A stretch of DNA of 64,000 bases from an uncultured Candidatus Saccharibacteria bacterium (GCA_964532425.1 CAZHIA010000003.1:5594-69593), one strand, 5' to 3'. Counted from the stretch's first letter, positions 6,426 through 48,855 are shown. Notes: generated by a model from the letters alone, not told the origin. Translations and numbers: made by a program.

Positions 6426-6541
6426 AACTGAAGCCAACATTTGACATTTAACCATTAACATTTGACCACCTTGGGCTTTGTCAAAGGTCAAATGTCACAT
6501 GTTAAATGTTATATTTTAATTGTTAATGGTTAATTGTTGAT
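6426..6541. repeat. intergenic word-repeat / palindromic element (ACATTTGACC / GGTCAAATGT family)
   Basis: TGACATTTAACCATTAACATTTGACC ... CAAAGGTCAAATGTCACATGTTAAATGTT ... TTAATGGTTAATTG. Contains the inverted copy of the ACATGTGACATTTGACCTTTG core also found at 26409 and 29713. Confidence 0.7.
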
Positions 6542-7516
6542 TTATGTTTTCACCATCTGTTTCGCTTTTTCTTCAATCAAAAGTTTAATCTGCGCGGCAT
6601 ATTCCGCGGCGACTTCCCGTCCGGCACTGTAGTAGGGTTCAAATTGGAAAATTTTACTACGATGCAATAACGGGATATCCGGAGTGATCATTAAATCGCA
6701 TGACCAGTCTTGCTGCCGCTCTTCCTGTTTACTGGCCTTAATGGCCAAATCCAGACTTTTGCCAAGGACCGTAAAAATTCCCGGCTTTTCTTCCAAATCA
6801 ACCTCGTCTTCATTCCGTAACCCATTCATCCACGACTCGATCTGTTCGATAAAGAATAACTTCCGTAAAACCCGGATAATGCGGTGCAGATTGAGCTGTG
6901 TTTCGGTAAATATGAACTTTGTGCCCCGCATGTTGATGCCGATCTTAATATCCATTCCCGCCTCATGCAATATATGCAAAGGCACCTGATTTAAAAGACC
7001 ACCGTCAACGAGCGTTCTTCCACCCCACTTCGCAGGCTCGAAAATTCCCGGTAAGGTACAGGAAATACGTGCAGCTTTAGCGATATCACCCATGGATAGC
7101 AGCACGAGTTCCCCGTTTTCGATGTCTACGGCTAAAAATCCAAGCAGCGGCCGCACTTCTTCAAAGGCCATATTGCCGGTGTACTTCCGAAGTTCTTCCT
7201 CAAGCAGGTCCAAGGAGTAGAGCCCGCCCTTATTCTGACTAGGAACGATTAAGCCGCGTAAAAATTTCTCATCGATCGATGAGAAGGTATCTTTCAACTC
7301 ACGCAGCTTCCCACAAGCGAATGCAGCTGCAACCAGAGAACCCCCAGAGCTGGCGGCGATATAATCGATGGGTATACCCTGCTCGGCCAGGACTTCCAAA
7401 AAGCCAATATAGAAAGTGATCCGGTTACCGGACCCGCTCAGCGCCAGGCCGACCGTCGGCCGGCTACTGCCAGGTAAATTACCCATGGAGAGCATGTTTA
7501 ATAATAATGTCCGCAA
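6542..7516 (-). CDS. patatin-like phospholipase
   Basis: GLALSGSGNRITF oxyanion motif and AASSGGS (GxSxG) serine motif. The 5' end overlaps the murG 3' end, and alternative starts at 7495 or 7486 are possible. Confidence 0.8.
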   Translation of the reverse strand: MRTLLLNMLSMGNLPGSSRPTVGLALSGSGNRITFYIGFLEVLAEQGIPIDYIAASSGGSLVAAAFACGKLRELKDTFSSIDEKFLRGLIVPSQNKGGLYSLDLLEEELRKYTGNMAFEEVRPLLGFLAVDIENGELVLLSMGDIAKAARISCTLPGIFEPAKWGGRTLVDGGLLNQVPLHILHEAGMDIKIGINMRGTKFIFTETQLNLHRIIRVLRKLFFIEQIESWMNGLRNEDEVDLEEKPGIFTVLGKSLDLAIKASKQEERQQDWSCDLMITPDIPLLHRSKIFQFEPYYSAGREVAAEYAAQIKLLIEEKAKQMVKT

Positions 7517-8567
7517 TTCCGCGCGCGCCGTCTTTCGGCATAATGTGCGAGATGTTGTTTTTCAATTCTTTCTGCAATGTGATATTAAATAGCAGTTTCC
7601 TGATCACGCGGACGAGCAGCTCGGGTTCCGCGGCTTCCTGTTCGATCACAATGGCCGCGCGCGCCCTGCCGAGCAGTTCGCCATTCTGTTCCTGGTGGCT
7701 GCTTGGCATAGGGATGATTATAGCAAGCTTGCTCAGGTTCGACAACTCCGTAATAGTGGCCAGGCCTGCCCGGCCGAGCACAATGTCCGCCGCAGCGTAG
7801 GCGTCTCCCATATTATTGATAAACGGGTGGGGCTGGTATCGCGGAGCCGGGACCGCCGCAGTCCGCCCCCCGGTCACATGCAACACCTGGATGTACTTGG
7901 TCAGCTCAGGCACGGCTTTCGCGATAAGAGAGTTAATAAAACTGGCGCCTGTCCCGCCGCCGAACGCCAACAGAACCGGCATGTGACTATCGAGTCCGAA
8001 CGCCTTCAGCCCTTGTTCTCGGGAAATTCCAACCAGCTCTTTCCTGAACGGATTGCCAGTTACGACGACCTTGGACTGCGAATCTTTATAGTCGAGGCCT
8101 GCACCCGAAGTGAAATCCTTTTCAGAACTTTCGAATGTCACCGTAATTTTTTTTGCACACATTTGGCACAGCACATTAGCCAGGCTAGGGACGACATCCT
8201 GCTGGTGAATAATGACCGGCACCCGCTTCAACCAGGCCGCCCACAGAACAGGAACTTGGACAAAACTGCCGGTCCCGAATACGACATCAGGTTTAAACTT
8301 TCCAATAAGCTGTAACGACTGGAAGAATCCCACTATCACCTGAAAGGGCATGACGAAATTGGCAAAAGAAAAATATCTTCGCAATTTGCCCGCAGTGATG
8401 GGAACGAATGGGATGCCCGCATTGGCCACCATCCCCTCCTCCGGCCCTTTTTTGGTGCCGATCATGAGGAATTCTGTTTTATTCTTTTGTTCCCTAATTT
8501 CCCGGGCGACCGCGAGCAGTGGAGAGACTGACCCCCCGGTGCCTCCGCCGACAAAAAGAATTTTCAT
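7479..8567 (-). CDS. murG: undecaprenyldiphospho-muramoylpentapeptide beta-N-acetylglucosaminyltransferase MurG
   Basis: MKILFVGGGTGGSVSPLLAVA is the MurG G-loop. Start placed at the internal Met (complement 8565-8567). Confidence 0.85.
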   Translation of the reverse strand: MKILFVGGGTGGSVSPLLAVAREIREQKNKTEFLMIGTKKGPEEGMVANAGIPFVPITAGKLRRYFSFANFVMPFQVIVGFFQSLQLIGKFKPDVVFGTGSFVQVPVLWAAWLKRVPVIIHQQDVVPSLANVLCQMCAKKITVTFESSEKDFTSGAGLDYKDSQSKVVVTGNPFRKELVGISREQGLKAFGLDSHMPVLLAFGGGTGASFINSLIAKAVPELTKYIQVLHVTGGRTAAVPAPRYQPHPFINNMGDAYAAADIVLGRAGLATITELSNLSKLAIIIPMPSSHQEQNGELLGRARAAIVIEQEAAEPELLVRVIRKLLFNITLQKELKNNISHIMPKDGARGIADIIIKHALHG

Positions 8568-8710
8568 ACGATACAACAATCTAGTTAATGGAGTAATCTC
8601 TAATATCGCGAATACAGCGCAAATATACAAATGACTATTGGCCGCTCAAAGAAATAAAGGACGGTGTGCTATATTCGTATATTTGTGCTTGATTCGTATA
8701 TTCGAGATTA

Positions 8711-10956: not shown

Positions 10957-10993
10957 GGTAACAATATCAAAAATTAAATGTCAAAGATCAAAT

Positions 10994-12091: not shown

Positions 12092-12290
12092 AGAATTGAC
12101 AAAATCGACGAAATTGACATAATTGACAAAATTCGGAAACAAAGAAATACAGTAGAAACACTATAGAAATATGGTAGAAATACAATTGTATTTCCATGTA
12201 TTTCTATTGTATTTCAATCGTATTTCTCTCTGATGTTTGTATAATTTTGTCAATTTTTTAAATTATGTTCAATTTTGTCAATTATTAATA
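12092..12290. repeat. composite intergenic palindrome (about 200 bp) built from AATTGACAAAAT and GAAATAC words
   Basis: Left arm AATTGACAAAATCGACGAAATTGACATAATTGACAAAATT and right arm AATTTTGTCAATTTTTTAAATTATGTTCAATTTTGTCAATT in inverted orientation. The core is GAAATACAATTGTATTTC (perfect 18-bp palindrome) flanked by GTATTTC repeats. Confidence 0.8.
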
Positions 12291-13877: not shown

Positions 13878-14280
13878 GGCTTCCAGCAAACTCATAAGCC
13901 GAATTCTGTTTGAAACAATCATCTATCTGGGACTGACATTGCTGCCAGCCTCGAGCGGCCTACCAAACTTGGCCTTGCGCTCTGGTAAGGATTTAGCCGT
14001 TTCACCCTCTATGTTGCCATGGAGGATCGCCCTGTACCAGTCGTCCCCCTAAGGAGGACTCCGGTTCAGGGCGCTTTCACCCTTTCGGGTTCAAGCGTTT
14101 CTGTTCGCACCTCTAAGGTTACCCTCGGCGGGCGTTACCCGCTACCATTGTTGATTTTTCTAAAGAGTTGCCCTCTTTAGAACCATCAACCGAGTGTTCG
14201 GACTTTCCTCCCCGCCCTTTGGATTGCATAGAAAGACTATTGTGAATTCTTAGCCTGAGATGTCCCCACGAACTTCCGTA
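13878..14280 (-). ncRNA. rnpB: RNase P RNA (bacterial type A); 5' boundary approximate
   Basis: Minus strand contains GGAGGAAAGUCCGAACAC (P4 5' strand with the conserved bulged U), ACAGAAUUCGGCUUAUGAG (P4 3' strand with covarying GG>AA / CC>UU), AGGGUGAAAGCG and GGGUGAAACGG motifs, and ends at a strong terminator. I could not resolve P1, so the 5' end is uncertain. Confidence 0.8.
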
Positions 14281-14487
14281 TTTCTTTAAGGCTCGTTCTC
14301 TTGCCAAAGCGTCTTTCTTTTCAGCATATGCTTCGTAATATACCAATCTAAAAGGTGTATATGCTTTTGTTGATATTTCCTGACCTGCATTATGTTCAGC
14401 GAACCTACGTTTAAGATCATTAGTTTGGCCAATATAAACAAATCCTTGTTTATTGGCCAGACTTTTGATTACGTAGACATAATGCAT
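14119..14487 (-). CDS. GIY-YIG nuclease family protein (small YhbQ-like); ORF tail reads into the rnpB 5' region
   Basis: MHYVYVIKSLANKQGFVYIGQTNDLKRRFAEHN is the canonical GIY-YIG motif. The domain ends around 14235. The open frame continues with low-complexity sequence through the RNase P RNA 5' part on the same strand. Confidence 0.7.
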   Translation of the reverse strand: MHYVYVIKSLANKQGFVYIGQTNDLKRRFAEHNAGQEISTKAYTPFRLVYYEAYAEKKDALARERALKKYGSSWGHLRLRIHNSLSMQSKGRGGKSEHSVDGSKEGNSLEKSTMVAGNARRG

Positions 14488-14621
14488 ATGCAATCCAAAG
14501 AGCGGGGCGATTGTTCGATTTGCTGAAAGCTTCACAAATCATAGCAAAAATTGGGCATTCTGTCAATATAAGAAAAGCCGCCCCAGAGCATCTGGGACGG
14601 CCACAATGGTGCGCAAACTGA

Positions 14622-15972: not shown

Positions 15973-18900
15973 TTATGAGATTGCAATAGTTTTATTGAGC
16001 ACACCTTGCTTGCCGATCGTAACTTGCCCTTCATACACCAATACTGCACGATCTTCGGAAATCTCCTTTACTTTAAGCAGATATGTTCCCGGTTGGCTCT
16101 TGAGGAAGAAAACCCCGTTCGGTTTTGTAACAGCTTTACCCATGACAATAGTGGGGAGAGCCACCGGAGAGAGCTCTAAATACAATCCGCCGACATCTCT
16201 GCTGCCGGCCAGACGACCGAGCAATCTCGCATGGGGAACGACCTTCCTGAGCACAGCAAGCACGACATACACTGCCAGGAATAATCCATTGAGCCAATTT
16301 GGCCTCATTGCAAATACCAGCAATGTCCAAGCCAGCCCCGCCCAAAAAACAAGCTCCAAAGTTATATTCAATATGTGCTCGATGCGGGGATGGAATTTGA
16401 CGATCCTTTTTTTGTCTTCCTGGTTCCAATCAAAGGCCTGCTGATCCATCGGAATATTCGGCGTCAGTGGCGCAGAACCATTGCGAACACTCAATTCTTC
16501 CCCATGGTAGACATTTTCATAGATGCCGTCACTTGATCCTGCCACGTGCACGGAAGGGAAAGTGTAGTTAGTTTTTCTTGCCCGGATTCGGTACAGTCCC
16601 GGCTTATCGAGGAAACCAAACTTCCCGTAGAGATCGGTAATGGCATGATCCACTTCTTTACCGGAACGAACGTCTATTAAATCAACCAATACCGGATCGA
16701 GCGGCTGCTTATTCTTACTGTCATAGACCGTTCCCCAATGCCGCCGGCGGGCACGTATTCCAAGCATGCCGAGCAGTCCATACACCAACCGAAGGAAATA
16801 CAGCCAGATGTCAGAAGCGCTGCCGGCATTCATGGACAAACCATACGTCGAAAGTGATGATTCAAGAGTTAACGTAGTCGGCGCAATAGCAATAGTGGCC
16901 ATTCTTGATGTCAATTCCATTGATCGCAGCTGCGGCATAGACACTATACCGGTTCGACCAGCGGAAATTTTTTCGCCCAGTTGCCGAACCACGTTTGAAG
17001 CAACACTGGTGATTCCTTCAAGAACCGGCGATATTGGAGTAACTGGCGATGCAGGAATACTGCCGGAACCACCAGAAGGCGGCTGCTCTCCAGGTATCTG
17101 CTGAATTGGCGTCGAGGATCCGGCCTGGCTTCCAGGCAAAAGGTTGCCAGTTTGATGAGGAGGATTTTCTGCAGGTGCCACCGGCGGCTGTACCGAGTCC
17201 GGGTCACGGTGAGAAGCGGGTTGATTGCTGACCGGAGCCGGCTCAGGCGGCAGCGGTACTAAGACAGGCTCCCGACCGGTATCTGTCGGCGGCACTGACG
17301 GGGTTTGAGGAGGAGCTTGTGAAACCGGCGGCGTCGCGGGTCCACCACCTCCCCCGCTCGGTGGATTCTGAACAGGTAAATCGCAAGCCGACGTAGTAAT
17401 GTCTAGAGCAGGAGAAAAACCGGTCTCCTGGGCATTAGCATTCCTCGCTTTAACATGGAATTGGTAATGACTGTTGCATGCCAGCCCGGATACTGTTGTG
17501 GTGGTCGCAGATATCCAAGAGGTCGTGGTGCTTGCCGTCATATTTTCGACCTGATATTCCGTCCCAATCGGATTTCCATTAGCATCCCATGTTAGCCCTA
17601 CCGCAGTAGCGGTAACCGTTGTCGTCGAAACATTTCCCGGGACATTCGCGAGCGTGTACGCAAACACGTCCGGCGCATAACCGCTCGTATTGTTTGCGTT
17701 CGTGACGATAGCGTAAAAATCGTACTGGGTATTTGGCACCAGGCTGGTACTGAGCCAGCTTGCGTTTGATGTCGTAGCGCTGCTGCCGGCTGTGGTTCGG
17801 TTAAAGTAGCGGTATGGTTGAGCAGCCAGTCCATACGCTGCATCAGCTGAGCCGGTTAGAGAAACACTAACCGAACTTGCAGTTACCGCAGAAACAGACA
17901 GCGTGCCTGGAACAAGTGAGGTGAGGTTTTGAAATAGAATCGAGTCAGTTACCCTGCCCGAGCTCTGGCCTGAGCCATTCAGGAATTTTGCATAAACCGA
18001 ATACGTACCATTTCCGCAGCTCCCCAAATTTTGGCAAATATCCCATGACTTTGTCGTTACATACGACTCAGGAGTCGCATCGGATAAGTCAGGTAAATTG
18101 GAAACCAGCATCAGCGTGGTTCCCGGCTGACCGGTAAGCTGGAGCGTAACATTCCGAGTCGACGTGATCGGGTCGTTTTGGTTTACATAAACACTGAAGC
18201 CCAGCGTTTCACTGCCTGAAGCCCACGGATCGAATGTGCCTCCCCCGCCAGAAGCAGCAGCTCCTTGAACTGAAACCTGACTGCTCAGCAGTGCTTCGCC
18301 GACATTTCCCGCATTGTCGAACACTCTAACTTTATAGTGGTACGTACCCGCTGGAAGGTTAGTGTCCGTCCAAGTTGTTGCCGCAGTAGATCCGGAGTTG
18401 TCCCAATTATCCGTATTGGAAAATACATACGGGGCAACACTCAATCCGGATTCAGCATCCTGGGAACCCGAAACAGCAATCGTAACAGAACCAGTACTCG
18501 TGCTGACTAAGGACAACGTTCCCGAATTCGGTAAAATAGTATCTATCCTGAAGGCAACCAGCCCATTATTTGCCACAGACCAAGGAGATTCCGCCCCTGC
18601 CTGATCCAAAGTTTTGACTCTCCAATAATAACCACTAGCCGAATCCGGCAGGACTTGCGCGCTTGAGCCGACGGAATAGAAACCGGATCCGGCATTTTGA
18701 CCGACGACAAAAGTTTTATCCCCTTGCGCGGCAAGAGCAGACGTATAGTCCACGGACAGTCCGCTAAAATCACTCGTCGTGGAAATTTGCATGCGGTAAC
18801 CGACTAAATCGGACGCGTCCGGATCAGTCAGGTTAAAATGCAAATCCGGTTGAGCAAGATTTATCCAGCTCCCATTGACCAACGGGCCGTTACCGAGGTA

Positions 18901-21900
18901 TGCGGGACTGTTTGGATTTTGATTACAGGGGGAAGCCGGCGGACTGACCATTGCGCTGTACGCGGTTTCGACTCCGTCATGGTTGCGGGCTTTGACGTGA
19001 AAAGAATATGAGTTTCCACATGACAAGCCGGCAAAAACAGTGCTCGTTGCCGTAACCCAACCTGAATTGGACGTAGCACTTGAGTTCTCGGCATAATATT
19101 CGGTTCCAGGAGGGTTTCCGTTCGTGTCCCAGGTTAAACGGACCGATGTGGCAGAAAGTACGGTCGTAGTGGCATTGGTTGGAATCTGTGCAGCTGTATA
19201 AATACTGCTCGTTGCGGTACTTGCCGAATTACCGGCGATATCAACCACCTGGGATTGAAACACGTATTTGGTGTTCGGCGTGAGGCCGCCACTGGTCCAC
19301 GTCGCGCCTCCCGGCGTACTCGTCGCCGAATTCGTCAGGTTGATAAAGTTATACGAAGCTATCCCGGAAAGATTATCCGAAGCTCCGGACACCACAACAT
19401 CCACATGGTCCGGATTCAGCCAATTAAACGTAATGGAACCGGGGTTCGGAGGAGTCGAGTCGAGTTTGAATGCTATACTTCCCGAATTAGCAAGGCTAAA
19501 CGGTGACGTTCCGCCGTTGCCATCAATCGCCTGCACCTCCCAATAGTACGAGCTATTATCGGACAAAACCTGCCCAGGCCCACCAATAGCATACGTTCCT
19601 GTACCAGCCAGCTGCCCCACGGTGAAACCATAGGAACCCTGCGGATTAAGCGCTGACGTGTAATCGAGCTGCGAAGAAGAAAAATTACTATTGGTATCTA
19701 TCCGAATGCGATACTTCACTGAATCCGCCCCATCAGGATCAGAAAGGTTGAATGTAAAATATGGGGACGTACTTGCAGTCCAGGTATTGGTCACGAACAG
19801 GTTCGGACCAAGCGAGCTCGGCGAATTCGGCGCATTGTTGGGAATGCCGGTGGTAATGGTTTTGTCTGTTCCATAGACCGACCCCTTTAAGTTCATGGCA
19901 AACATACGGACATGGTAGGTTGTTGACGGAGCCAGTCCGGTTAATGACGAAATGAAAGTCCCGCTCGCATTCGTTATCCCATTGCTCGCCACAGAACCGG
20001 CAGTGTCATACAACTTAAACTCCGCAACAGCGGTATTTCCGCCCCCGTTATTCGCGGAAATATTTAAACGATATTTTGCGTAAGGCGTTGTGTTGACGAA
20101 ATTAAAAGAACGCGATTCTCCATTTGCCCAGCTGACTTGGTTGGAAATTGATTGCAAGCTCACCCAAGCGCTTCCGTCCCATGCTTCAAAAGTCCAGTTG
20201 CGAGGAGAGTCGCCGCCGCCGGAATAATTATTTCCGGTTATCGTATACTTGTTGACGACAGTCGAAACAGGAAAATCGTATTCTAAATCATAACTCATCC
20301 CTTGGTTGGATGACCAGTATGTGTTCGGATTACCATCAAAAGCATTTGAGGCAGAACCGATGTTTGCTTTTGACGCGGCAGCGGTACCAGTCTCAAGAAT
20401 AGCCAGATTTACATTCGGCACGGACGGGTTTGGATAGGTTGCCCACACGCTCCCGTAACCAGTGATCTGATAAAATGGTAAATCTAAAATTGTGCCGTGG
20501 CCAGTGGCGGTTGTAGACAGAATGTCGGTAACGTCATCGGAGGTGACACTCGGTACTGACGCCGGATAGAGCGAGCCAGCCGCTCCAGCGCCGTAACCAA
20601 CCCCTCCGGAAACACTGCGTGAGACGCTGTTATTATAGACGGAGCTTAACACTGAAATCCTACCGCCGCTTCCACCACCGCCGTTATTGCAACCGTTCCC
20701 CCCGTTTGAAGTTAAACTACCGGAGCCGGCAAAGTTTGTGGTGGTGATGAAAATACTCCCGCCGCTTCCACCACCCGGACTCCAACAATTGAATGCGTTA
20801 GAACCGTTTGCAGAAATTACTCCATCAACGGTAGTTGTGCCGGTTACACTGAAAATCGCCGCACCGCCACCCGCACCACCTCCGTCATTCGAACTGCCGA
20901 ACTGACTTGAGTTCCCCCCACCACTCCCAAGATCGACTGGATTCACCAAGGACCCATAGGGGCTACCAGCATTCACCGCAGACCCGTTACCACCAGAACC
21001 ACCATATGACCCTCCGGCATTATTGTCACGAGGAGTTATTTGGGAGGTTCCCGGCCCCTGCCCGCCGACGTATCCGCGGCCGTTAACGTTTACCGAACCA
21101 CTGCCGCTTACGGTAAGGTTTCCGTTTACCTGCCAATTCAATTTATAGAGACTCGCCGAACCAGTTGTGGCGGTTGTGTTATACGCATGGGTCAACATAC
21201 CGTCAATTGTCACATTATTATACGTTCTACTCGCACCCAGTGCCGCCACCACAAGAGTTGTGCCCGAAGGGATTGTAATGTTCTGATTCTGCCTCAGCAC
21301 CGCAAGGTCACCACCACTGTCAACAACAGTGCCGGACCAAGTCAGGGACGAATAGGAGAACGATGTGCCCGATTGCGCGTAGTATGCCGAGTTGCTTAAG
21401 ATTGTCAGGACAGTTGATGTAGATGAGGATCCAACCAGGTAAACGGCTGCATTATTTTTTAGAGTCACACTATCCATCACAAAAACAGGCAACGGAGTCT
21501 TTCCATACCCACGCTCGTCTGTCGCACCAGATGAATTCAGGTTGTTGTTATCGAGAAGCAAGTCTCCATTTGCTTGGGCTGCGGCTTTCTTGTACAGCGT
21601 TCCACTGCCGCCATAGTTTGGCCATGTGGTTCCGCTGTAATAGGCATAGCTCACCGAAGACACATCTGTCGTGTACTTTATCGCAATACGACCCCCGCTC
21701 CCGTTACCAGAGGCGTTTCCGCACGCATTACCGCCACGCGCGGTGATTGCACCGTTACCCGCCAGAGTTCTCGTCACCACATTAACGCTTCCCCCGCTGC
21801 CGCCACCGGCATCCCAGCAGCTAAACGCATTCCCCCCATTAGCAGAGATAGCACCACTGACGGTCGTAGTAGCCGCTACGTTCAGAATGATTGAGCCTCC

Positions 21901-25770: not shown

Positions 25771-25800
25771 GCAAATAAAAACACCCCTATTCGGGGTGTT
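25771..25800 (-). terminator. rho-independent terminator after rpsI
   Basis: Hairpin AACACCCCTATTCGGGGTGTT followed by a U-run on the minus strand. Confidence 0.6.
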
Positions 25801-29780: not shown

Positions 29781-30170
29781 TTAGGTTTTTTCTGCCGATC
29801 CCTTGCGTCCGCTGCCGGCGGTCTTTCTGACGTTGCCGCGGCGGGTGCGGGAGTTGGTTTTGGTGCGTTGGCCGCGAACCGGAAGGCCGCGAATGTGGCG
29901 GATACCGCGATACGCGCCGATTTCCTTGACGCGTTTGATATTCAGCAGCACCTGCTGGCGCAATTCACCTTCGACCTTGTAGTTCTTTTCGATATAGTCA
30001 CGCAAGCGGTTGAGTTCGGCCTCGGTAAGGTCCTTCGTCCGCTTGTCAGGGTCGATGTTGGTTGCAGCCAGGATCTTCTTGGACATCGAGAGCCCAATGC
30101 CGTAAATATACGGCAAAGAAGCTTCAATACGCTTTTCGTTCGGAATGTTGATTCCAGCTATTCTCGCCAT
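29781..30170 (-). CDS. rpsM: 30S ribosomal protein S13
   Basis: [26 protein letters not shown] is canonical S13. Confidence 0.92.
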
Positions 30171-30264
30171 AGATATATGTTAACTTTTTAGCTCCTTAGC
30201 TCATAACGGGTGCGTTGTGTAGTCCGTAATAAGCTAACGAGCAGAAAGCTAAGCCCGAGAGAGC

Positions 30265-30378
30265 TTAACCTTGGCGCTGCTTATGCTTGGGATTTTCGCA
30301 AATGATATAAATGCGACCGAACCGCTTTACCACCTTACACTTCTTGCACATCGGTTTCACACTGGCGCGTACTTTCAT
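30265..30378 (-). CDS. rpmJ: 50S ribosomal protein L36 (37 aa; below ORF-track cutoff)
   Basis: Minus-strand translation [37 protein letters not shown], the zinc-ribbon L36 signature C..C...C..H. Confidence 0.85.
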
Positions 30379-30485
30379 ACAGTTAAAAATTCAAAATTAA
30401 AATTTAAAGTTGACTAAAACGCCTGCAAAGCCCCGGCGTTGACCCTGTTGGGCGGCGGGATAGGCTTTGCGCTGTTAACTTGTAA

Positions 30486-30737
30486 TTATCTGAGTCGTCT
30501 GGTGATTCGTCCTCGAGACAAATCATACGGCGTAAACTCCATGATAACCCGGTCTCCAGGGAGGACCCGGATCTTGTTCATGTGCATTTTTCCGGACAGA
30601 TGTCCTAAAACCAGCTGGCCTGAGTCCAGCTGGACACGAAAAATGGCATTAGGCAAATTCTCGATGACTTTGCCCTCGAGCTCAATGACGTCTTTCTTTG
30701 TCCCAGACTTCCCAAAGTCTTGATTACGGTTTTGCAA
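30486..30737 (-). CDS. infA: translation initiation factor IF-1 (apparent TTG start)
   Basis: [68 protein letters not shown] matches the IF-1 S1-like fold. The ORF track's first codon is TTG and there is no in-frame ATG. Confidence 0.85.
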
Positions 30738-30907
30738 AGAAGGTATTTGAATTTATTAAATTCCCGTATATTATAGCACAGGTTCCAAATATGTCAAATA
30801 TAATGGTGACTTTAGCTGTCAGCTTACAGCTTATAACTTTCAGTTTGACAATTTATCAATAAATCAGTATAAATAATTTTACCAATAACCCTTTAAAATA
30901 GCATGAT

Positions 30908-30947
30908 TTATTAAGAAAAACCTCCGCCAACAGTGGAGGTTTTTTTG
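30908..30947 (-). terminator. rho-independent terminator (hairpin AAACCTCCGCCAAC/GTGGAGGTTT)
   Basis: Downstream of the 30996..32690 gene. Flanked by AGCTTATAGCT-type motifs. Confidence 0.6.
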
Positions 30948-30995
30948 GCTTCTGCTATAAGCTAATACCTATAACCTGAAAGCTTCTCGTTTTAA

Positions 30996-32749: not shown

Positions 32750-32863
32750 AAAGAAATGACAAAAATGACATAATTGAACAAAATTGACAAAATTATATAA
32801 CTGCATCTGCAGTTTAATTTTGTCAATTTTGTTCAATTTTTTTAAATTTTGCTCAATTCCCCC
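32750..32863. repeat. composite intergenic palindrome (TTGACAAAAT family), copy 2
   Basis: GAACAAAATTGACAAAATTA TATAACTGCATCTGCAGTT TAATTTTGTCAATTTTGTTC: perfect 20-bp inverted arms around a CTGCATCTGCAG core. Confidence 0.8.
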
Positions 32864-34030: not shown

Positions 34031-34066
34031 ATTTTTAGCTTATAGCTTTTAGCTGTCAGCTTATAG

Positions 34067-34432
34067 TCAGGCAGCGGGTGTTAATTTTTTGATAATTACA
34101 TTTAACATTTTCATTACCTCTATCGCGAGGGAAACGACTTTGGCATATGATTGTTCATCGCAAAATCCAAGTTTGTGAGCAATCTCTATTTGCGTTTCCA
34201 ATTCCGCCCCTGAGGCCAAGGCAATAATTAAGAACTGACGAAAGTCCTTCCTCGTTCCGCGTGTCCTCCCTTCCGCAATATTCGACGGAATGGACACGGC
34301 ACACCTTCTGCTTTGCGAAACCAAACCGAACAATTCGGATTTGGGATAGCATGATGTCATTTGATATACAGCAATAACCAAATCCATCGATTTCTGCCAA
34401 ACGATTAAATTTCGATAGCTCTCGATTGGCAT
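34067..34432 (-). CDS. four-helix-bundle protein (TIGR02436; 23S rRNA intervening-sequence protein family)
   Basis: YRNLIVWQKSMDLVIAVYQMTSCYPKSELFGLVSQSRRCAVSIPSNIAEGRTRGTRKDFRQFLIIALASGAELETQIEIA is a near-consensus match to this family. Flanked by inverted AGCTTATAGCT-type repeats. Confidence 0.85.
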   Translation of the reverse strand: MPIESYRNLIVWQKSMDLVIAVYQMTSCYPKSELFGLVSQSRRCAVSIPSNIAEGRTRGTRKDFRQFLIIALASGAELETQIEIAHKLGFCDEQSYAKVVSLAIEVMKMLNVIIKKLTPAA

Positions 34433-34467
34433 TGGTGTTCTATAAGCTATAAGCTGGAAGCTAAAAG

Positions 34468-36288
34468 CTACTCAACCGTCGCCTTAATCCTCCTCACTCC
34501 TGCCGAGGAGGCTTCTTCTTTTTGTATTTTGAAATTACCGATCATTCCGGTATGTTCGACGTGCGGGCCGCCGCAAAATTCGCGGGAGACTACTTCATCC
34601 GTTTTGGGATCGTATACGGTATAGACGGAGACCGTATCCCCGTATTTTTCTCCGAATACGCCGATGGCATTCAATTTCTTAGCTTCTTCCAAAGGTAAAA
34701 CATCTTTTTTCACCGTTAGATCACGATTGATCCAATTATTAACCATTTTCTCGACTTCCTGCTTCTGTTCGTCGGTCATTTTTTCGCCATGCGTAAAATC
34801 GAACCGCGTGCGTTCTTCGGTAATATTACTCCCCTTTTGCCAGACGCTGTCGCCAAGCACTTTGCGCAAAGCAGCGTTCATCAAGTGGGTAGCCGTATGC
34901 AGCCTCACGATCTTGTCACTATGACTGGCTAAGCCGCCTTTAAATTGGCCTGCACTGGCTGTGCGGGAAAGTTCCTGGTGCTTTTTGAACTCCGATTCGA
35001 ACTCGGTCTTGTCGATTTGCTGGCCCATTGATTCGGCAAGTTCTTTGGTCAGCTCCCAGGGAAAGCCGAAAGTTTGGTAGAGATCGAAGGCATCCTTGCC
35101 GGTTAACCCCTGCTCCCCTGTACGGGAGGGTCGCGACCCTCCCCTACTCTGTATGATCTTTTCAAATTCCTTCAAGCCCTTTTCCAGCGTGGCCTCGAAC
35201 TTCTTCTGCTCTCCCTCGATCACGGCAAATATCCGCTCCGACTTATCGATCAAATCAGGATACGCTTCGGCATACGTTGCCACTACTTTGCCGATCAAAG
35301 CCTTCAGCCATTCATGCTTGAGTCCTAAAAGTCTTCCCATGACCATGGCGCGGCGCAGCAGGCGACGCAAAACGTAGCCGCGATCCTTATTGGACGGATC
35401 TACGCCGTCACCCACGATAAAGACCGAAGCCCTGATGTGGTCAAGCACGATCCGGGCTTTTTTCACCTCGTCGTTGGTCATAATGGCCTGGTCCAAGGCG
35501 ATCACTTCCCACATCGGTTTGAACAGCTCGGTATCGTAGACGGAACTGTGGCCATTCAAAGCGACCAGGGTACGGTCTAAACCCATACCGGTATCAACAT
35601 TCGGCTTTGGCAGCGGGGTCAGCGTACCGTCCGCATGCTTTTCGAACTGCATAAAAACGTCGTTCCAGATCTCGACCCAGCGCTTGTCGTTCTTCGTCTC
35701 CGCAAAATTCTTCGGCGCTGGAGTGCCGTCATCAACCCAATAGAACATTTCCGTATCCGGCCCGCACGGCCCGGTCGTTCCCGCAATCCACCAGTTATCT
35801 TCCTTAGGCAAATACGCAATACGCTCTTCGGGCACGCCAAGAGATTTCCACATCGAAGCCGCTTCTTCGTCGCGCGGAGCATCACTGTCACCGGCGAAGA
35901 CCGAAAACGCCAAACGCTCGAGCGGCAGCCCGAGATGTTTTGGATCGGTCAAAAATTCGAAGCTCCAGGAAATGGCTTCTTTCTTGAAATAGTCGCCAAA
36001 GCTCCAATTGCCGAGCATTTCGAAAAACGTCAGGTGGGTGTTATCCCCGACTTCGTCGATATCGCCGGTACGGATGCACTTTTGCACATCGGTCACGCGC
36101 GTACCGCCCGGATGATTCTCGCCCAAAAGGTACGGCACCAGCGGATGCATGCCGGCAGTGGTGAACAAAACGGAAGAGTCATTTTCCGGCACCAGACTGG
36201 CGGACGGAATTATTGTGTGGCCTTTGGACTTGAAGAATTCCAAATATTTGGTACGGAGTTCTTGGGCTGTAATGTGGGACATAAGCAA
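34468..36288 (-). CDS. alaS: alanine--tRNA ligase, short form (catalytic, tRNA-recognition and editing domains; no C-Ala domain)
   Basis: ELRTKYLEFFKSKGHTIIPSASLVPENDSSVLFTTAGM ... FEMLGNWSFGDYFK ... HTATHLMNAALRKVLGDSVWQKGSNITEERTRFDFTH editing motif. 606 aa. Carries the in-frame palindromic insertion at 35120-35147. Confidence 0.9.
   Translation of the reverse strand: MLMSHITAQELRTKYLEFFKSKGHTIIPSASLVPENDSSVLFTTAGMHPLVPYLLGENHPGGTRVTDVQKCIRTGDIDEVGDNTHLTFFEMLGNWSFGDYFKKEAISWSFEFLTDPKHLGLPLERLAFSVFAGDSDAPRDEEAASMWKSLGVPEERIAYLPKEDNWWIAGTTGPCGPDTEMFYWVDDGTPAPKNFAETKNDKRWVEIWNDVFMQFEKHADGTLTPLPKPNVDTGMGLDRTLVALNGHSSVYDTELFKPMWEVIALDQAIMTNDEVKKARIVLDHIRASVFIVGDGVDPSNKDRGYVLRRLLRRAMVMGRLLGLKHEWLKALIGKVVATYAEAYPDLIDKSERIFAVIEGEQKKFEATLEKGLKEFEKIIQSRGGSRPSRTGEQGLTGKDAFDLYQTFGFPWELTKELAESMGQQIDKTEFESEFKKHQELSRTASAGQFKGGLASHSDKIVRLHTATHLMNAALRKVLGDSVWQKGSNITEERTRFDFTHGEKMTDEQKQEVEKMVNNWINRDLTVKKDVLPLEEAKKLNAIGVFGEKYGDTVSVYTVYDPKTDEVVSREFCGGPHVEHTGMIGNFKIQKEEASSAGVRRIKATVE
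35120..35147. mobile_element. 28-bp palindromic element GTACGGGAGGGTCGCGACCCTCCCCTAC inserted in-frame in alaS
   Basis: Near-perfect palindrome centred on TCGCGA. Same architecture and termini as the elements at 59381, 39389 and 41359. Encodes the GGSRPSRTGEQG-type insert in AlaRS. Confidence 0.6.
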
Positions 36289-38464: not shown

Positions 38465-38562
38465 ACATTTAACCTTTGACAATTGACATTTAACCGATGA
38501 AATCAAAATCATCGTGTGGCATTATGTCAAAAGTTAAAGGTCACAGGTCAAATGTTGGGAAC
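38465..38562. repeat. intergenic word-repeat element (ACATTTAACC/TTGACA family)
   Basis: AACATTTAACCTTTGACAATTGACATTTAACC ... AAAGTTAAAGGTCACAGGTCAAATGTTGG. Confidence 0.6.
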
Positions 38563-39555
38563 TCACCTGCTTACCCTCGGATCACTCTTAACAGAATTGA
38601 TGACGATCAGTGTCCACATCCGCGCATAAATGCCGCAATAGACCAGCCAATTGAACCAAAACGGATATTTTTCGCGATAATGCTTGCGGTAAAAAATCCA
38701 CATAGCGTCATGGAACCAACGGAGGGCTTTGGTTGCGACCTTGCGGCTAGATTCGCCTTTGTAATGAGTAATGAACGTTTGAGGATAGTACCAAACCTTA
38801 AAACCCGCTTCCTTGCAGCGCCAGCACCAGTCCAGGTCTTCGCCGTACATGAAAAACGTTTCATCCAGCAGCCCGATCTTTTCGACAACATCCTTCCGCG
38901 CCAGACAGAAGGCTCCAACCAGACTGTCAATCTCCGATTCCTGGTCAGCCGTCTCATCCGAAAAGTTATACGCCGCATCTCCGGCTACCTTTTGCAAGTG
39001 TAAAAACCGCAGCATGGCATTCCACGGGTTCGGGAATTTCCGCCGCGCCGCGCGATCCAGGCTACCATCCGGCTTCATAATTTTGCACGTGCTCATGCCC
39101 ACATCCGGATGTGTTTCCATAAAATCGAGCATCACTTTGAACGTGTCCGGTTCGACCTTGGTATCGGGATTAAGCAGGAGGACGTAACGTCCGGTTGACT
39201 GTTTAATGCCGATGTTGTTGCCAGCCGCAAAACCGTTGTTGATGTTACGGATAAGCTTATAGCTATCAGCTGTCAGCTTATAGTTTTCGAGCCATTCATA
39301 GGTGCCGTCCGGTGAACCATTGTCGACGATGATAACCTCACCGGTATATTGCGCTCCATGAGGCTGGCTATTGGCTTGCTGTTCGGATGTAGGGGCGACT
39401 ACCAGCCGCCCTTCAGATTGCGGGCGGCCAGTGGCCGCCCCTACAAAAACCACCCTCTTACTACCCCAAATCGAAGGCAGCAGCACTTTAAGGTGTTCTT
39501 TGGACCGGTAGGAAAGAATAATAATGGAAAGATCAAACCTATTGACAGAATTCAT
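38563..39555 (-). CDS. glycosyltransferase family 2 (rhamnosyltransferase-like), with about 40-aa in-frame insertion
   Basis: LSIIILSYRS ... IIVDNGSPDGTYEW ... NNGFAAGNNIGIKQSTGRYVLLLNPD are GT2 motifs. An insert (WGSKRVVFVGAATGRPQSEGRLVVAPTSEQQANSQPHGAQYTG) is encoded by the palindromic element at 39389-39444. Confidence 0.8.
   Translation of the reverse strand: MNSVNRFDLSIIILSYRSKEHLKVLLPSIWGSKRVVFVGAATGRPQSEGRLVVAPTSEQQANSQPHGAQYTGEVIIVDNGSPDGTYEWLENYKLTADSYKLIRNINNGFAAGNNIGIKQSTGRYVLLLNPDTKVEPDTFKVMLDFMETHPDVGMSTCKIMKPDGSLDRAARRKFPNPWNAMLRFLHLQKVAGDAAYNFSDETADQESEIDSLVGAFCLARKDVVEKIGLLDETFFMYGEDLDWCWRCKEAGFKVWYYPQTFITHYKGESSRKVATKALRWFHDAMWIFYRKHYREKYPFWFNWLVYCGIYARMWTLIVINSVKSDPRVSR
39389..39444. 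mobile_element. 56-bp palindromic element GTAGGGGCG...CGCCCCTAC inserted in-frame in the GT2 gene
   Basis: Termini GTAGGGGCG / CGCCCCTAC are exact reverse complements. The inner GCCGCCC / GGGCGGC arms add a second stem. Confidence 0.55.
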
Positions 39556-40549: not shown

Positions 40550-40753
40550 ATGTCGAAGAACAAAACAAGAAAAGCTGAGGTTATGGAATACGTAACTTCA
40601 AAAGATGGTAAGCTGATCGGCCGAAAAGGACAAGAGGTTTACCTTCCAGAAGGCTATGTAGCCCAAGTCATCGCTGTCCCGGTCAACTCGCCGGAGGGAC
40701 AAGTATTAAAATCACACGATGCACGCCAGTGTCCGAACATCGCCTCAACATGA
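40550..40753 (+). CDS. hypothetical small protein (67 aa)
   Basis: SD GGAGG upstream. Terminator downstream at 40810-40838. Confidence 0.45.
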   Translation: MSKNKTRKAEVMEYVTSKDGKLIGRKGQEVYLPEGYVAQVIAVPVNSPEGQVLKSHDARQCPNIAST

Positions 40754-41788
40754 CCTGGCGACATCTCCTGGTCTCTGAACGATTTGGCGCTTCCGCCACA
40801 TTTTCGGCAACTGCCTGAACATTTCAGGCAGTATTTTTAATGTCGAAATTTCGAACAGCACTATATAGCCTAGCATAAAAAATTCCCGGATAAAAAATTG
40901 AGGATAAAAATGCCGCGAATTTTTGACATACATAAAAATATGGTTCTTATAGTTGAGCTGCTTCACCCGCGGACTAATCATTTTATGATGTTTGATAAAC
41001 CCCGACACATCAGCATATCCATTTTTCGATGAGCCTGCACCCCTGCCGTGATAGCCGACCGCCTCAGGCACAAACACGCATTTCCAGCCTGCATTCCGCA
41101 GACGCCACGCCAGGTCAACATCTTCCCAGTAGGAATGGAAGTCCTCGTCGAAATACTCGAACTGACCTTTGGCATTTGGCATTTGACACTTAACCGCTTC
41201 CAAAGCGGTGCGTCGATAAGCACATCCGGCACCGGAAACCGCATCGACGACTAGCTCATTGTCGTACTGGCCCCGATCAATCTCATGCTGCCCGCGGTCG
41301 CGTGCGCGCCCAGATTTGCTAATAGAAACACCGGTCGTGTCTAAAATATTGGTCTTCTGTACGGGACGGCTCGCCTCGCTCGACACGAGTCGAAGCGGGT
41401 CACGACCGTCCCCTACGGGAAATCCAAAATTGCACCGCAACAACTTCCCCGTCGCCGCCCCCACCTTCTCATCTTCAAACACTTTCACCATCCGCTCAAT
41501 GTAATCCGGCTCCATGATAAAATCCGGATTAACCAACTGAAAAAGATCGCTCTGGTATTTCTCGAACACTAAATTGTGCCCTTTAGAAAATCCGATGTTA
41601 TACCCAGGATCTATTATCTCCACCTGGGGGAACTTTTCCGTGAGCAGTTCTTTGCCATGGTCATCATTGCCGCTTATAACCGCCACGACGTGGATATTCT
41701 TGTATGTCTGGTTAAAGATAGCCGAAAAGACCGGTTCAATAAATCGGCGGTTGTTGTAAATGACTTGAATTACGATAACCTTAGGCAT
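40745..41788 (-). CDS. glycosyltransferase family 2 (rhamnosyltransferase-like) with in-frame palindromic insertion
   Basis: GT2 N-terminal fold (VIVIQVIYNN...AVISGNDDHG) and C-terminal DVDLAWRLRNAGWKCVFVPEAVGYHGRG. The segment VGDGRDPLRLVSSEASRPV is encoded by the element at 41359-41416. Confidence 0.8.
   Translation of the reverse strand: MPKVIVIQVIYNNRRFIEPVFSAIFNQTYKNIHVVAVISGNDDHGKELLTEKFPQVEIIDPGYNIGFSKGHNLVFEKYQSDLFQLVNPDFIMEPDYIERMVKVFEDEKVGAATGKLLRCNFGFPVGDGRDPLRLVSSEASRPVQKTNILDTTGVSISKSGRARDRGQHEIDRGQYDNELVVDAVSGAGCAYRRTALEAVKCQMPNAKGQFEYFDEDFHSYWEDVDLAWRLRNAGWKCVFVPEAVGYHGRGAGSSKNGYADVSGFIKHHKMISPRVKQLNYKNHIFMYVKNSRHFYPQFFIREFFMLGYIVLFEISTLKILPEMFRQLPKMWRKRQIVQRPGDVARSC
40810..40838 (+). 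terminator. rho-independent terminator
   Basis: Hairpin CTGCCTGAACATTTCAGGCAG followed by TATTTTT. Confidence 0.6.
41359..41416. mobile_element. 58-bp palindromic element GTACGGGACGG...CCGTCCCCTAC inserted in-frame in the GT2 gene
   Basis: Termini are reverse complements with the same single C/G asymmetry as the alaS copy. Inner GGTCACGACC resembles the GGTCGCGACC core of the other copies. Confidence 0.55.
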
Positions 41789-41830
41789 AAAAATTTAATG
41801 AGCAACATTTGACATATGACATTTAACCTT
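41789..41830. repeat. intergenic word-repeat (AACATTTGACATATGACATTTAACC)
   Basis: Same word family as 6426, 26409, 29704 and 48717. Confidence 0.55.
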
Positions 41831-41972
41831 TACCTGTAGTGCAGGCCCTCGGCCTGCCTGTATTCAAATCGCACTGATCTATGGCAGCCCACGGGGCTGC
41901 ACTACATCAATTCTTTAATTTTGAATCAACTAAAAAGTCGAATCTCAATTATCCAAAGTTTAAATGTTGCAC

Positions 41973-45567: not shown

Positions 45568-45690
45568 ACAACAATAATTGACAAAAATGACAAAATTGAA
45601 CAAAATTGACAAAATTATGCTGCAATTCTATCTTCAATTTTTGTCAATTCTGTCATTTTTTTAAATTTTGATCAATTTCTAACAAGCATT
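45568..45690. repeat. composite intergenic palindrome (TTGACAAAAT family), copy 3
   Basis: AATTGACAAAAATGACAAAATTGAACAAAATTGACAAAATT ... AATTTTTGTCAATTCTGTCATTTTTTTAAATTTTGATCAATT. Confidence 0.75.
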
Positions 45691-47220: not shown

Positions 47221-47246
47221 TTAACATGTGCAAGTCATGATATAAT
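47221..47246 (+). promoter_or_regulatory. extended -10 promoter TGATATAAT abutting the start codon (putative leaderless)
   Basis: TTAACA ... TGATATAAT (47238-47246), then ATG at 47253. Confidence 0.35.
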
Positions 47247-47252
47247 GTATAT

Positions 47253-48716
47253 ATGCTGAAAACCAAATTTTCTCCATTTTTTTTCTTACTTGTATTTGCA
47301 ATTGTGCCTTGGCCAGCTTCCGCTGATACTTCAGCCAGTTCTACGATCGGTGATATGAATACCGCAACAGCAACCGCGCCGACATTAACCATAGGAAACA
47401 GCGCGGCAATATCCACAACTACTGCAGGCTCGGTCCTTGGCCTGCAGGCCCCTGCCAAACCCCCGCTCATACAGGCAATCGAGAATGCCAAAGCGCAACT
47501 TGTTCCGGTCAGCTTGAACCATGCATTGACACCGGTCTCCAAGAACATCAAAAATAAAAAAACGAAAAAAACGACCAAGGTTATTACCGGGTATAACCTT
47601 ACGGCTAAAGATATTGCCCTGGCCATTCTCGATCCCGCCACTCAAAACGTTACCATTGTTAAAGGCATGCAGACCGGTAAAACCATGACCTTCAATGATC
47701 CGGCGGCGGATGTTAAATTGACCAGCTTCAATGGCGTCAATAGCCGCTTTTCCGTGAGCCGGCCTGCGGGAGGCACGGTCATTGCCCTAAAATATCTCAT
47801 CACCGGCACGGAATCCAGCAGCAAAGCAGCCATTGAGAATAGCATCTCGGAAGCCATCTACGTCCCCTATTCACCGGCACTTTCCAGCCCGGATGTCGTT
47901 GCCTATGGCGCCAATTACTTAAATGGTGTTATCAGACAGGTTACCGCAGGCTTGCAAGGCCTCCCTTCCCAGGCAGTACCCGGAAAAACCATCACCGAGG
48001 CCATCAAACCGTCACTGGTCAAGGCTCTGGTCTACGCCGAACATACGGATACCGGCAAGATCCTTTCCGGCAATCAAGATGACATCTTAGGCACCATAGA
48101 CCAGTTGAATATCTTGTTTGCTACCAACGAAGAAGACACCTACCGCTACAGCGTCAGCTCGGCCGGCGCCCGCGGTATTGCGCAATTTATGCCCTCCACG
48201 TACGCTTCACTGGTCCAGCGCCACCCTGAAGCGGCGCTGAATCCCGATTTTGTCGCGGGCATGTCCGACCATGTCAACGCCATTAAGGCCATGTATCTAC
48301 TCATCGACGACTATGCCGGTACGGTGCGCGTCAAAGCCCAGCAAGGCTATGCCGAAGGCCAACTGTTCGATTATGGAGCTGCTTCGTACAACGGCGGTAC
48401 CACGCGCGTAGCCAAGGCCGTCAATGCGTTCGGACAAAACTGGAACGCGGACCGGTCAGGCGAGATTGCCAGCATGCAGGCGCAAATCAATTCGCTGTCC
48501 TCGCAATCGAAAACCTTAGCTTCAAAGATCAAGAAGGCGAAGGACAAAAAGACCAAGGCTGATCTGCAGGCGCAGCTGTCCCAAGTCAAGAACCAGCTTG
48601 CCTCCACCTCAAACCAACTGGACACCATGCAATCAGCTACTCTGCGGAATGAAACTGTCAATTACCTGAAAAAAATCTACAATGTCATTCATGTCTTTAA
48701 TGACCAGCAGATTTAG
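47253..48716 (+). CDS. secreted protein with lytic-transglycosylase-like motif and C-terminal coiled coil
   Basis: Signal peptide MLKTKFSPFFFLLVFAIVPWPASA. SSAGARGIAQFMPSTYA resembles the SLT-domain motif S.AGA.GLMQ.MP.T. C-terminal heptad-rich KKAKDKKTKADLQAQLSQVKNQL. Confidence 0.5.
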   Translation: MLKTKFSPFFFLLVFAIVPWPASADTSASSTIGDMNTATATAPTLTIGNSAAISTTTAGSVLGLQAPAKPPLIQAIENAKAQLVPVSLNHALTPVSKNIKNKKTKKTTKVITGYNLTAKDIALAILDPATQNVTIVKGMQTGKTMTFNDPAADVKLTSFNGVNSRFSVSRPAGGTVIALKYLITGTESSSKAAIENSISEAIYVPYSPALSSPDVVAYGANYLNGVIRQVTAGLQGLPSQAVPGKTITEAIKPSLVKALVYAEHTDTGKILSGNQDDILGTIDQLNILFATNEEDTYRYSVSSAGARGIAQFMPSTYASLVQRHPEAALNPDFVAGMSDHVNAIKAMYLLIDDYAGTVRVKAQQGYAEGQLFDYGAASYNGGTTRVAKAVNAFGQNWNADRSGEIASMQAQINSLSSQSKTLASKIKKAKDKKTKADLQAQLSQVKNQLASTSNQLDTMQSATLRNETVNYLKKIYNVIHVFNDQQI

Positions 48717-48855
48717 GAGTCCAACATTTAACATATGACAATTGACCCGTGACCCGTTCTGCTCCGCTCAGGGTCATTCTGAGCTTCCCGAAAAATGCTC
48801 ATTAACCTTTGACCCATACAACCCTGTTAATGGTTCAATGTCAATTATCAATTGT
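48717..48855. repeat. intergenic word-repeat (AACATTTAACATATGACAATTGACCCGTGACCCG ... CATTAACCTTTGACCC...TCAATGTCAATTATCAATTG)
   Basis: Same TGACA/TTGAC/AACATTT vocabulary. Confidence 0.55.

Follow-up and report, generated by a model that had tools for sequence, protein, structure and literature searches.

What kind of sequence settles again and again between the genes of a ribosomal protein operon, and what does the operon gain or lose by it? The question is raised by a 64,000-nt stretch of DNA (GCA_964532425.1, CAZHIA010000003.1:5594-69593; hereafter the window) in which related AT-rich repeats, here called family B, lie between rplM and rpsI, between rpsM and rpsK and, inverted, between the patatin gene and murC. 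The relatives of its RpoA are metagenome-assembled genomes of Candidatus Doudnabacteria/Patescibacteria (56-85% identity), and the host is a Candidatus Doudnabacteria (Patescibacteria, candidate phyla radiation (CPR)). With a probability of roughly 0.55, we read family B as one member of a clade-specific class of selfish hairpins, akin to the intervening sequences (IVS) of rRNA and to repetitive extragenic palindromes (REP), with arms made of heptamer arrays. Such hairpins would multiply by copying inside the genome and be reshaped by slippage; they would be transcribed with the operon and looped out of the mRNA, with RNase III possibly cutting them.

Family B elements are quasi-palindromes with tandem-array arms

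Repeat, Tandem Repeats Finder (TRF), Pfam, Rfam, promoter and terminator scans were made within the window. The 27-mer ACATGTGACATTTGACCTTTGACATGT is present exactly at 26398-26424 and 29716-29742 (both + strand) and with 3 mismatches at 6476-6502 (- strand), with 0 matches in 100 shuffles; GGTCAAATGTTAAT, at up to 2 mismatches, gave 6 matches against 0.54 expected. Repeat finding gathered a single direct family at 6436, 26397, 29715, 38457, 41804 and 48723, with a complementary partner arm for each, and a degenerate two-unit pattern picked out 8 window sites, 7 of them intergenic, with 2 matches in shuffles of all sequences. The repeat family proposed in a preliminary description of this DNA is thus borne out, and the degenerate relatives that it listed are grouped within it, at 38465, 41803 and 48723. 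Its inverted copy between murC and the patatin gene also stands: ACATGTGACATTTGACCTTTGACATGT lies there on the - strand, and the arms are 24/24 complementary.

Each member is an AT-rich quasi-palindrome of 60-110 nt, in spacers of 30-33% GC, in whose arms TRF resolves tandem arrays with a period of 7 or 14; TTRAC and GTYAA, one in each arm, are conserved in the alignment. The left arm of copy 1 reads ACATGTG ACATTTG ACCTTTG ACATGTG before the loop, and its right arm is a perfect (TCAAATGTTAATGG) x2.6 array (TRF period 7 and 14, 100% matches). The right arm of copy 2 is an equally perfect (AATTGTCAAATGTT) x2.1, and the arm of copy 3 at 6479-6538 is an 8.6-unit array. The rplM-rpsI and rpsM-rpsK copies had been called near-identical, which is slightly generous, since their left arms are identical but their right arms differ (88% identity across 75 nt, 3 gaps). 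For copy 1, reported at 26409-26476, the locus was right, but the element starts near 26395. The perfectly duplicated 14-mers of copies 1 and 2 differ from each other at one base (TCAAATGTTAATGG versus TCAAATGTTAATTG), so slippage or homogenisation postdates the separation of these copies.

All flanking genes identified by Pfam are on the - strand (murC, patatin, rpsI, rplM, rplQ, rpoA, rpsD, rpsK and rpsM). The rpsM-rpsK copy was reproduced at 100% identity in Logan assemblies from two sequencing runs (contigs L062/L063) and is therefore no assembly artefact. Logan contigs also break inside the repeats; together with this reproduction, that shows the elements to be real and multi-copy.

Sister families fill the spacers of the same operon

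At least 8 families in the window are constructed in the same way from other units (Table 1). From rpsM to rpsI, five of six spacers are occupied by such elements, drawn from three families, while the sixth, rpsD-rpoA, holds a different structure. The view of family B as an intrusion into an otherwise compact operon is accordingly wrong: spacers filled in this way are usual in the clade.

Table 1. Palindromic elements and cassettes discussed in the text (window coordinates unless a locus is named; z, fold z-score against shuffles)
Feature	Coordinates	Position	Structure	Fold
Family B, copy 1	26395-26474	rplM-rpsI spacer	left arm 26398-26428, right arm 26436-26471	- strand -22.1 kcal/mol, z -2.9; + strand -26.9 kcal/mol, z -3.6
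Family B, copy 2	29713-29779	rpsM-rpsK spacer	left arm 29716-29742, right arm 29747-29778	z -3.9 and -4.9
Family B, copy 3	6426-6541	patatin-murC spacer, inverted relative to copies 1 and 2	arms 6436-6468 and 6479-6538	z -3.4 and -3.2
Family B, degenerate copy	38465-38558		arms 38465-38497 and 38526-38558 around small inner hairpin 38499-38514	-31.7 kcal/mol, z -4.2
Family B, arms	41803-41969		arm 41803-41834, weak partner 41951-41969; split by ~110-nt GC-rich GTAG-type hairpin pair (nested insert)	
Family B, degenerate copy	48723-48855	convergent spacer, between stop of + strand gene and bidirectional terminator 48862-48895	arms 48723-48757 and 48801-48855, split by GC-rich hairpin insert	z -2.5
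Family B, short single-arm fragment	10975-10993		AAATGTCAAAGATCAAAT	
Palindrome	26911-27005	rplQ-rplM spacer	unit ACGAATCNN, period 8-9, 39 bp	-42.1 kcal/mol
Element	27372-27457	rpoA-rplQ spacer	TTCAAAA/TGCAAAA arms around GC mini-hairpin GCCGCTTCGCGGC	
Element	29125-29239	rpsK-rpsD spacer	copy of 27372-27457 (95% over 58 nt), second GC mini-hairpin inserted	
AATTGACAA family palindrome	32757-32858		period 9-10, CTGCAG centre	
Other AATTGACAA copies	45571-45678; 12094-12133/12243-12283; 53116-53155			
11-nt-unit palindrome	12143-12227	nested between AATTGACAA arms 12094-12133 and 12243-12283	unit AGAAATACAGT	
IVS-like cassette	34033-34470	- strand	inverted AGCTTAT heptad arrays 34033-34066 and 34440-34470 around IVP gene	
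IVP cassettes in relatives	L006 4100-4560; L008 4060-4510; L025 3320-3770; L130 2950-3420; also L133, L138, L139			

The apical loops of the AT-rich palindromes often carry one or two GC mini-hairpins such as GCCGCTTCGCGGC, one strand of which reads C(UUCG)G and the other GCGAAGC, a very stable DNA mini-hairpin; they lie at 27405-27425 and 29158-29206 in the window and in the rpsD-rpoA spacers of loci L022, L028 and L060. CTGCAG-like centres occur in only ~13% of palindromes, so a conserved loop motif is not general. A candidate arrangement with rpmJ as cargo between arms proved to be separate palindromes in adjacent spacers, with none split.

The class is confined to spacers of one clade and turns over rapidly

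We surveyed 121 sequences (1.36 Mb), all loci centred on one operon region, with genes in the relatives called by a longest-ORF (open reading frame) rule. RpoA scans of genome and metagenome contigs returned nothing above about 75-85% amino-acid identity, and look-ups of exact proteins yielded short Logan contigs alone, all identical to the window. The relatives keep the same gene order from rpsM to rpsI.

TRF, whose thresholds miss degenerate arms, found 584 arrays, most often of period 7 (267) or 9 (115). An inverted partner within 250 nt accompanied 169 of the 584, against 4 in a control that used the flanks of unrelated arrays and 16 with a direct partner. The resulting elements measure 63-140 nt (median 83 nt), with a median stem of 26 bp and 28% GC. 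Of the arrays, 429 (73%) are intergenic, whereas non-coding DNA makes up 17%. Arrays occupy 26% of co-directional spacers as opposed to 6% of convergent ones (Fisher p=0.001), and 18% of divergent ones. The elements are multi-copy within the genome, nearly confined to spacers (mostly co-directional ones) and present in either orientation. Hairpins start a median of 5 nt past the stop codon and end 10 nt ahead of the next start, and the last 15 nt before that start are as A/T-rich as short empty spacers. Co-directional preference, these short flanks and the A/T-rich leader point to a constraint from co-transcription.

Spacers measure 1-30 nt in distant Doudnabacteria and 70-130 nt, full of tandem-unit palindromes, in many closer members. 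Intergenic arrays are scarce below ~65% RpoA identity to the window and, with one exception, essentially zero at or below ~62%. A separate observation concerns L055, from a distant Doudnabacteria otherwise without intergenic arrays: its 191-nt alaS-pgi spacer contains a large palindrome with arms of CCCTAAA/CCTAAAC-like heptamers, the plant-telomere unit.

Family B itself recurs in L015, there at the rplM-rpsI junction too, and in L022, L028, L060 and L004. The search for the same element at the same junctions of related genomes, as had been proposed, thus succeeded in L015. In genome pairs 80-88% identical at the DNA level, the coding flanks and the rpsD-rpoA leader align, but at a given junction the palindromes are made of unrelated units, or only one of the two genomes has a palindrome at all. 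Turnover must thus be fast. Within single elements, pairing between the arms reaches 83% in the best register, 76% after a one-unit slip and 26% when out of phase; this near-equal pairing after slippage places complementarity at the level of the unit consensus. Arms lengthen and shorten by unit slippage, and elements are replaced wholesale between related genomes.

Could polymerase slippage simply have built a separate heptamer array in each spacer, without any copying from locus to locus? Among bacterial long simple sequence repeats (LSSR), a period of 7 is the most common, as PMC4679880 relays from Mrazek 2007. The units are extremely diverse, with dozens of different ones present, perfect local duplications are found, and heptamer number varies among Coxiella strains. 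Against such independent growth, the 27-mer recurs at three loci up to 23 kb apart (two exact, one with 3 mismatches) with homologous partner arms. Array pairs share 16-mers 7.6-fold more often within a genome (40/2315) than between genomes (383/167744), the spacers at 27372 and 29125 hold a 95%-identical pair, and inverted pairing (169 versus 4) demands more than slippage. We consider purely in-situ microsatellites quite improbable. The shared 27-mers, the 14-nt unit duplications, the within-genome sharing of 16-mers and the wholesale replacement of spacers instead fit the actively spreading element that had been suggested as one option for family B.

Palindromy is symmetric at the DNA level

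Intercistronic hairpins may also be kept by selection on RNA, as RNase III processing sites, blocks to 3'-exonucleases or translational-coupling devices. Across family B, hairpins fold well below shuffles on both strands (z -2.5 to -4.9), and the ~26-bp stems of the class match the RNase III stem (28 bp) in the Coxiella IVS. Co-directional spacers are favoured, placement is fixed (5 nt from the preceding stop, 10 nt from the following start), architecture is retained despite sequence turnover, and the arms of the IVP cassette described below changed concordantly across genera. Against this, no sense-strand RNA signature was detected in either the minimum free energies of sense and antisense strands or the mismatch spectrum. 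Among ribosomal protein spacers of at least 60 nt (n=281), the sense strand was more stable in 114 and the antisense strand in 166, and the antisense strand was also the more stable for copies 1 and 2. Counts over the 62 palindromes whose orientation is known gave 1481 Watson-Crick pairs, 38 sense G.U pairs, 59 A.C and 223 other mismatches, hence no G.U excess. RNAalifold on 9 family members gave a double change in just 1 of 12 pairs, in an alignment that periodicity makes ambiguous. Because both strands fold equally well, G.U pairs are not in excess and covariation is lacking, the symmetry is a property of the DNA. The element also occurs in both orientations, relatives with 1-10-nt spacers do without it, and arms slipped by a unit pair nearly as well. 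Taken together, these results make a selected RNA element an unlikely explanation. The proposed check for structure and covariation was therefore answered in part: stable hairpins yes, covariation no.

Candidate signals within the elements gave a similar picture. No element matched an Rfam family at gathering threshold, RNase P RNA being the sole match in the window, and a permissive Rfam scan of the operon gave only a sub-threshold miRNA-hairpin match to the elements. A terminator scan of 25700-31000 placed no intrinsic terminator in them, their stems being AT-rich and without a T-tract. No usable -10 box of a sigma-70 promoter was found, with only weak 9/12 matches within copy 1. The operon has its own promoter, a perfect 12/12 TTGACA-16-TATAAT at 30797-30770 (- strand), with TG, upstream of infA. 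The attenuator, binding-site and other functional readings offered earlier thus lack direct support: there is no G.U excess, covariation, terminator, promoter or Rfam family. Separately, a sub-threshold match to Alpha_RBS (S4-binding) lies at 30138-30242 (- strand), upstream of rpsM.

With TTGAC(A) cores that equal the -35 hexamer, the arrays might further be iterated DNA sites for a sigma factor, regulator or nucleoid protein. No pentamers are more enriched in the arrays than TTGAC, TGACA and ATTGA (4-5-fold, in 83 of 429), the family alignment conserves TTRAC/GTYAA, and the organism's promoter is itself TTGACA-16-TATAAT. However, TTGAC is missing from ~80% of arrays, whose units are unrelated, no -10 box stands at the proper spacing, units are swapped for unrelated ones between close relatives, and a 7-nt spacing would put successive sites on different helix faces, as established DNA geometry dictates. 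Protein-binding arrays are thus very unlikely.

Two further readings were set aside. The 18-mer GACATTTGACCTTTGACA had 3 isolated matches in viral contigs, in coding-like sequence with no palindrome, which we attribute to chance. Arrays of tandem interspaced guide RNAs (TIGR) consist of two alternating 8-12-nt repeats with 9-nt spacers in a 36-nt unit adjoining a Nop-domain Tas gene (PMC12045711); the units here are 7-11 nt and dispersed, without repeat/spacer alternation, and no Nop-domain protein (Tas) lies nearby.

An IVP cassette connects a sister family to rRNA intervening sequences

The gene at 34067-34432 encodes a PF05635 protein (23S_rRNA_IVP, the S23p four-helix-bundle protein; IVP) and is flanked by inverted heptamer arrays whose 24-nt arms are 92% complementary; the first unit provides the alaS stop codon TAG. 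The same gene occupies the same alaS-pgi junction in L006, L008 and L025, where unit changes are concordant in both arms: TAGCTTA/TAAGCTA in the window, TAGCTTG/CAAGCTA in L008 and L025, and TAGTTAG/CTAACTA in L006. Other IVP homologues with period-7 flanks lie at Doudnabacteria tsaC-MFS, DegV-thiolase, Collierbacteria pilin genes and rpiB-rpe, and over nine contexts such arrays flank the gene in 7-8, with an inversion stronger than in any of 200 shuffles in 7. Loci L038 and L040 contain ORF-less palindromes of TAGCTTT units with a AGGGAATTCCT centre, which look like the cassette (L138) minus its ORF. Given arrays around an IVP ORF and such ORF-less look-alikes, at least one sister family of family B is an IVS-like element in an mRNA spacer.

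The Coxiella burnetii 23S helix-45 IVS has an S23p ORF, of the same family, and a terminal stem of 28 bp that RNase III cuts; upstream of the ORF stand two or three heptamers in tandem, variable between strains (PMC4990558). CPR rRNA genes hold IVP ORFs as well as short ORF-less IVS-like inserts (PMC11270868). It is tempting to suppose that IVS-type selfish hairpins, until now known solely as insertions in rRNA genes, radiated into the operon spacers of one Doudnabacteria clade, with the IVP gene as their own cargo and the ORF-less palindromes, family B included, as non-autonomous derivatives. We hold this only tentatively and judge it improbable; family B has no ORF-bearing relative, so that its link to IVS runs through the sister family. 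Cleavage of the stems by RNase III is plausible solely by analogy with the stems of rRNA IVS.

An IVP gene between inverted heptamer arrays (TAGNTTN ... NAANCTA) occurs in many Patescibacteria, in varied neighbourhoods outside rRNA. The alaS-pgi junction, seen in about 55 loci, is an insertion hot spot that measures 4 nt in distant Doudnabacteria. In other loci it holds arrays or unrelated small genes of 0.3-1.6 kb, several of them bounded by TTCCCTCCTTTTAAAGGAGGGA-type hairpins (L020, L024, L030, L038, L059 and L060).

The elements combine features of several known systems

Comparison with described repeats places the elements between categories. Like rRNA IVS, they are, on our reading, selfish hairpins with terminal inverted repeats and a stem near 28 bp. 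They share with IVS an optional PF05635 (S23p/IVP) ORF in the loop, ORF-adjacent tandem heptamers of variable number, ORF-less versions of ~100 nt and a sporadic distribution; the cassette at 34033-34470 matches that layout and recurs in other Patescibacteria. The differences are that all elements here lie in protein-operon spacers and none in rRNA (the window contains no rRNA), that the whole stem consists of heptamer units in many sequence families, and that RNase III excision is known for IVS, whereas the evidence here is sequence, with no rnc gene seen in the 64-kb window.

REP elements and bacterial interspersed mosaic elements (BIME) are likewise short, imperfect palindromes present in many copies between genes; they often lie within operons and are transcribed with them, occur in either orientation and form clustered or nested arrangements. 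In Proteobacteria they are 20-40 bp, GC-rich, tagged with GTAG or CGTC and linked to a REP-associated tyrosine transposase (RAYT) (PMC3733652), the cognate IS200/IS605-like Y1 transposase. Family B elements are instead 60-110 nt, 30% GC and untagged, with tandem arrays as arms and no RAYT in 64 kb; the three best copies, whose termini are ACATGTG...CAAATGT, carry neither a GTAG nor a CGTC tag. As in miniature inverted-repeat transposable elements (MITE), the arms are inverted repeats, but the flanks of these three copies show no target-site duplication; no parent insertion sequence with matching ends lies in the 64-kb window.

Heptamer direct repeats (TAACTGA of Beggiatoaceae, cyanobacteria and Bacteroidetes; short tandemly repeated repetitive sequences (STRR); LSSR; PMC4679880) are tandem arrays of 5-11-nt units, most commonly 7 nt. 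They share with the elements here 7-nt units in arrays of 2-6 copies, an intergenic position just upstream of start codons, also in ribosomal protein operons, the lack of a Shine-Dalgarno sequence and a patchy distribution (PMC4679880). They involve essentially one heptamer per genome in direct orientation, with one inverted case in 170 (PMC4679880), while here inverted pairs dominate (169 versus 16 direct) and dozens of units coexist. Organellar palindromic repeats resemble the elements as microsatellite-like, intergenic palindromes that are optional between close relatives and of inferred mobility. Examples are the (A)n/(T)n microsatellites arranged as palindromes in the mitochondria of Fusarium (PMC7218506), the palindromes of Volvox and Lobosphaera and the hairpin elements of sponges. 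Those are of eukaryotic organelles with mononucleotide or other units, as opposed to heptamer arrays in a bacterial chromosome. The elements are best called a variant that combines IVS, REP/BIME, heptamer-repeat and palindromic-microsatellite kinds. They lack defining features of REP/BIME (high GC, GTAG tag), MITE (target-site duplication), rRNA IVS (a site in rRNA) and heptamer direct repeats (direct arrays of a single unit). In the searchable literature we found no description of them and no paper joining Doudnabacteria with intergenic repeats, only analogues.

Further features of the window

GC-rich GTAG...CTAC palindromes lie at 39389-39444 and 41395-41421, within coding sequences (CDS) of GT2 genes (38563-39555 and 40745-41788), at 53615-53639 in a subtilase CDS, and at 59381-59408 in an intergenic region (a perfect GTAGGGGCCGGTCGCGACCGGCCCCTAC at 59381). 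Some are apparently in frame, encoding ...FVGAATGRPQSEGRLVVAPT..., and resemble GTAG-tagged REPs and the in-frame palindromic inserts of Rickettsia. The array AGCTTATAGCTATCAGCTGTCAGCTTATAGT (39254-39284) is 94% identical to the array at 34037-34067 but in frame in a GT2 gene, with peptide ENYKLTADSYKLI; another array inside a CDS is TTTGGCA x2.6 at 41157-41192. Arrays inside the 5' ends of longest-ORF calls (GATTAGT x5.4 at 3778-3815 and AATTGACAA x4.4 at 12094-12133) suggest start codons over-called where arrays precede genes.

The window also encodes a bacterial class A RNase P RNA (13879-14193, - strand, 104 bits), whose 5' part overlaps the 3' end of a small GIY-YIG nuclease ORF call (14119-14535). 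A 2793-aa ORF (15973-24354) and a second one of 1517 aa or more, which continues past the window's end (59427-63980) and contains internal repeats of 234 nt and 789 nt, probably encode giant surface proteins. A 564-aa ORF without Pfam match (30996-32690) has repeat-rich spacers on both sides, and a type IV secretion system-like protein (47253-48716) is one of few + strand genes.

How the hairpins could spread and persist

The elements would behave as selfish hairpins, in the manner of REP elements and rRNA IVS, spreading within the genome by copying or recombination, after which slippage would homogenise their arms. They are presumably co-transcribed with the operon and tolerated since the RNA folds back and so holds stop codon, A/U-rich leader and following start near one another. 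A self-folding insert would leave these parts adjacent and avoid a long unstructured untranslated stretch, and this may be why the inserts that persist in coupled operons are palindromic. The ~25-bp stem, like those of IVS, may in addition be cut by RNase III.

Several observations weigh against this account. No transposase, RAYT or other mobilising gene was found by Pfam among the ~50 window proteins, and the three best copies show no target-site duplication (flanks AGT|..|ATG, GAT|..|TAG and TTA|..|TGG). The missing ORF-bearing relative of family B counts here as well. The preference for co-directional over convergent spacers is unlike a purely neutral parasite and could mean function, and an architecture that is kept while its sequence changes could reflect selection for structure rather than mutational drive.

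Implications

In practice, the repeats break short-read assemblies and inflate ORF calls, with several arrays in over-called 5' ends. For the biology of the clade, CPR/Patescibacteria genomes are seen as streamlined, yet about a quarter of this clade's co-directional spacers hold ~80-nt hairpin repeats. The elements unite heptamer microsatellites and extragenic palindromes, which are normally described apart, and the IVP cassette ties them to rRNA intervening sequences. They offer a natural system for the co-evolution of palindromes and tandem arrays through slippage and arm homogenisation, and a test of how far tightly coupled operons tolerate 80-nt insertions. If IVS-type hairpins did radiate into these spacers, operon mRNAs would routinely be cut or looped at such sites, and the role of the IVS ORF and the spread of IVS, a decades-old question, would become testable.

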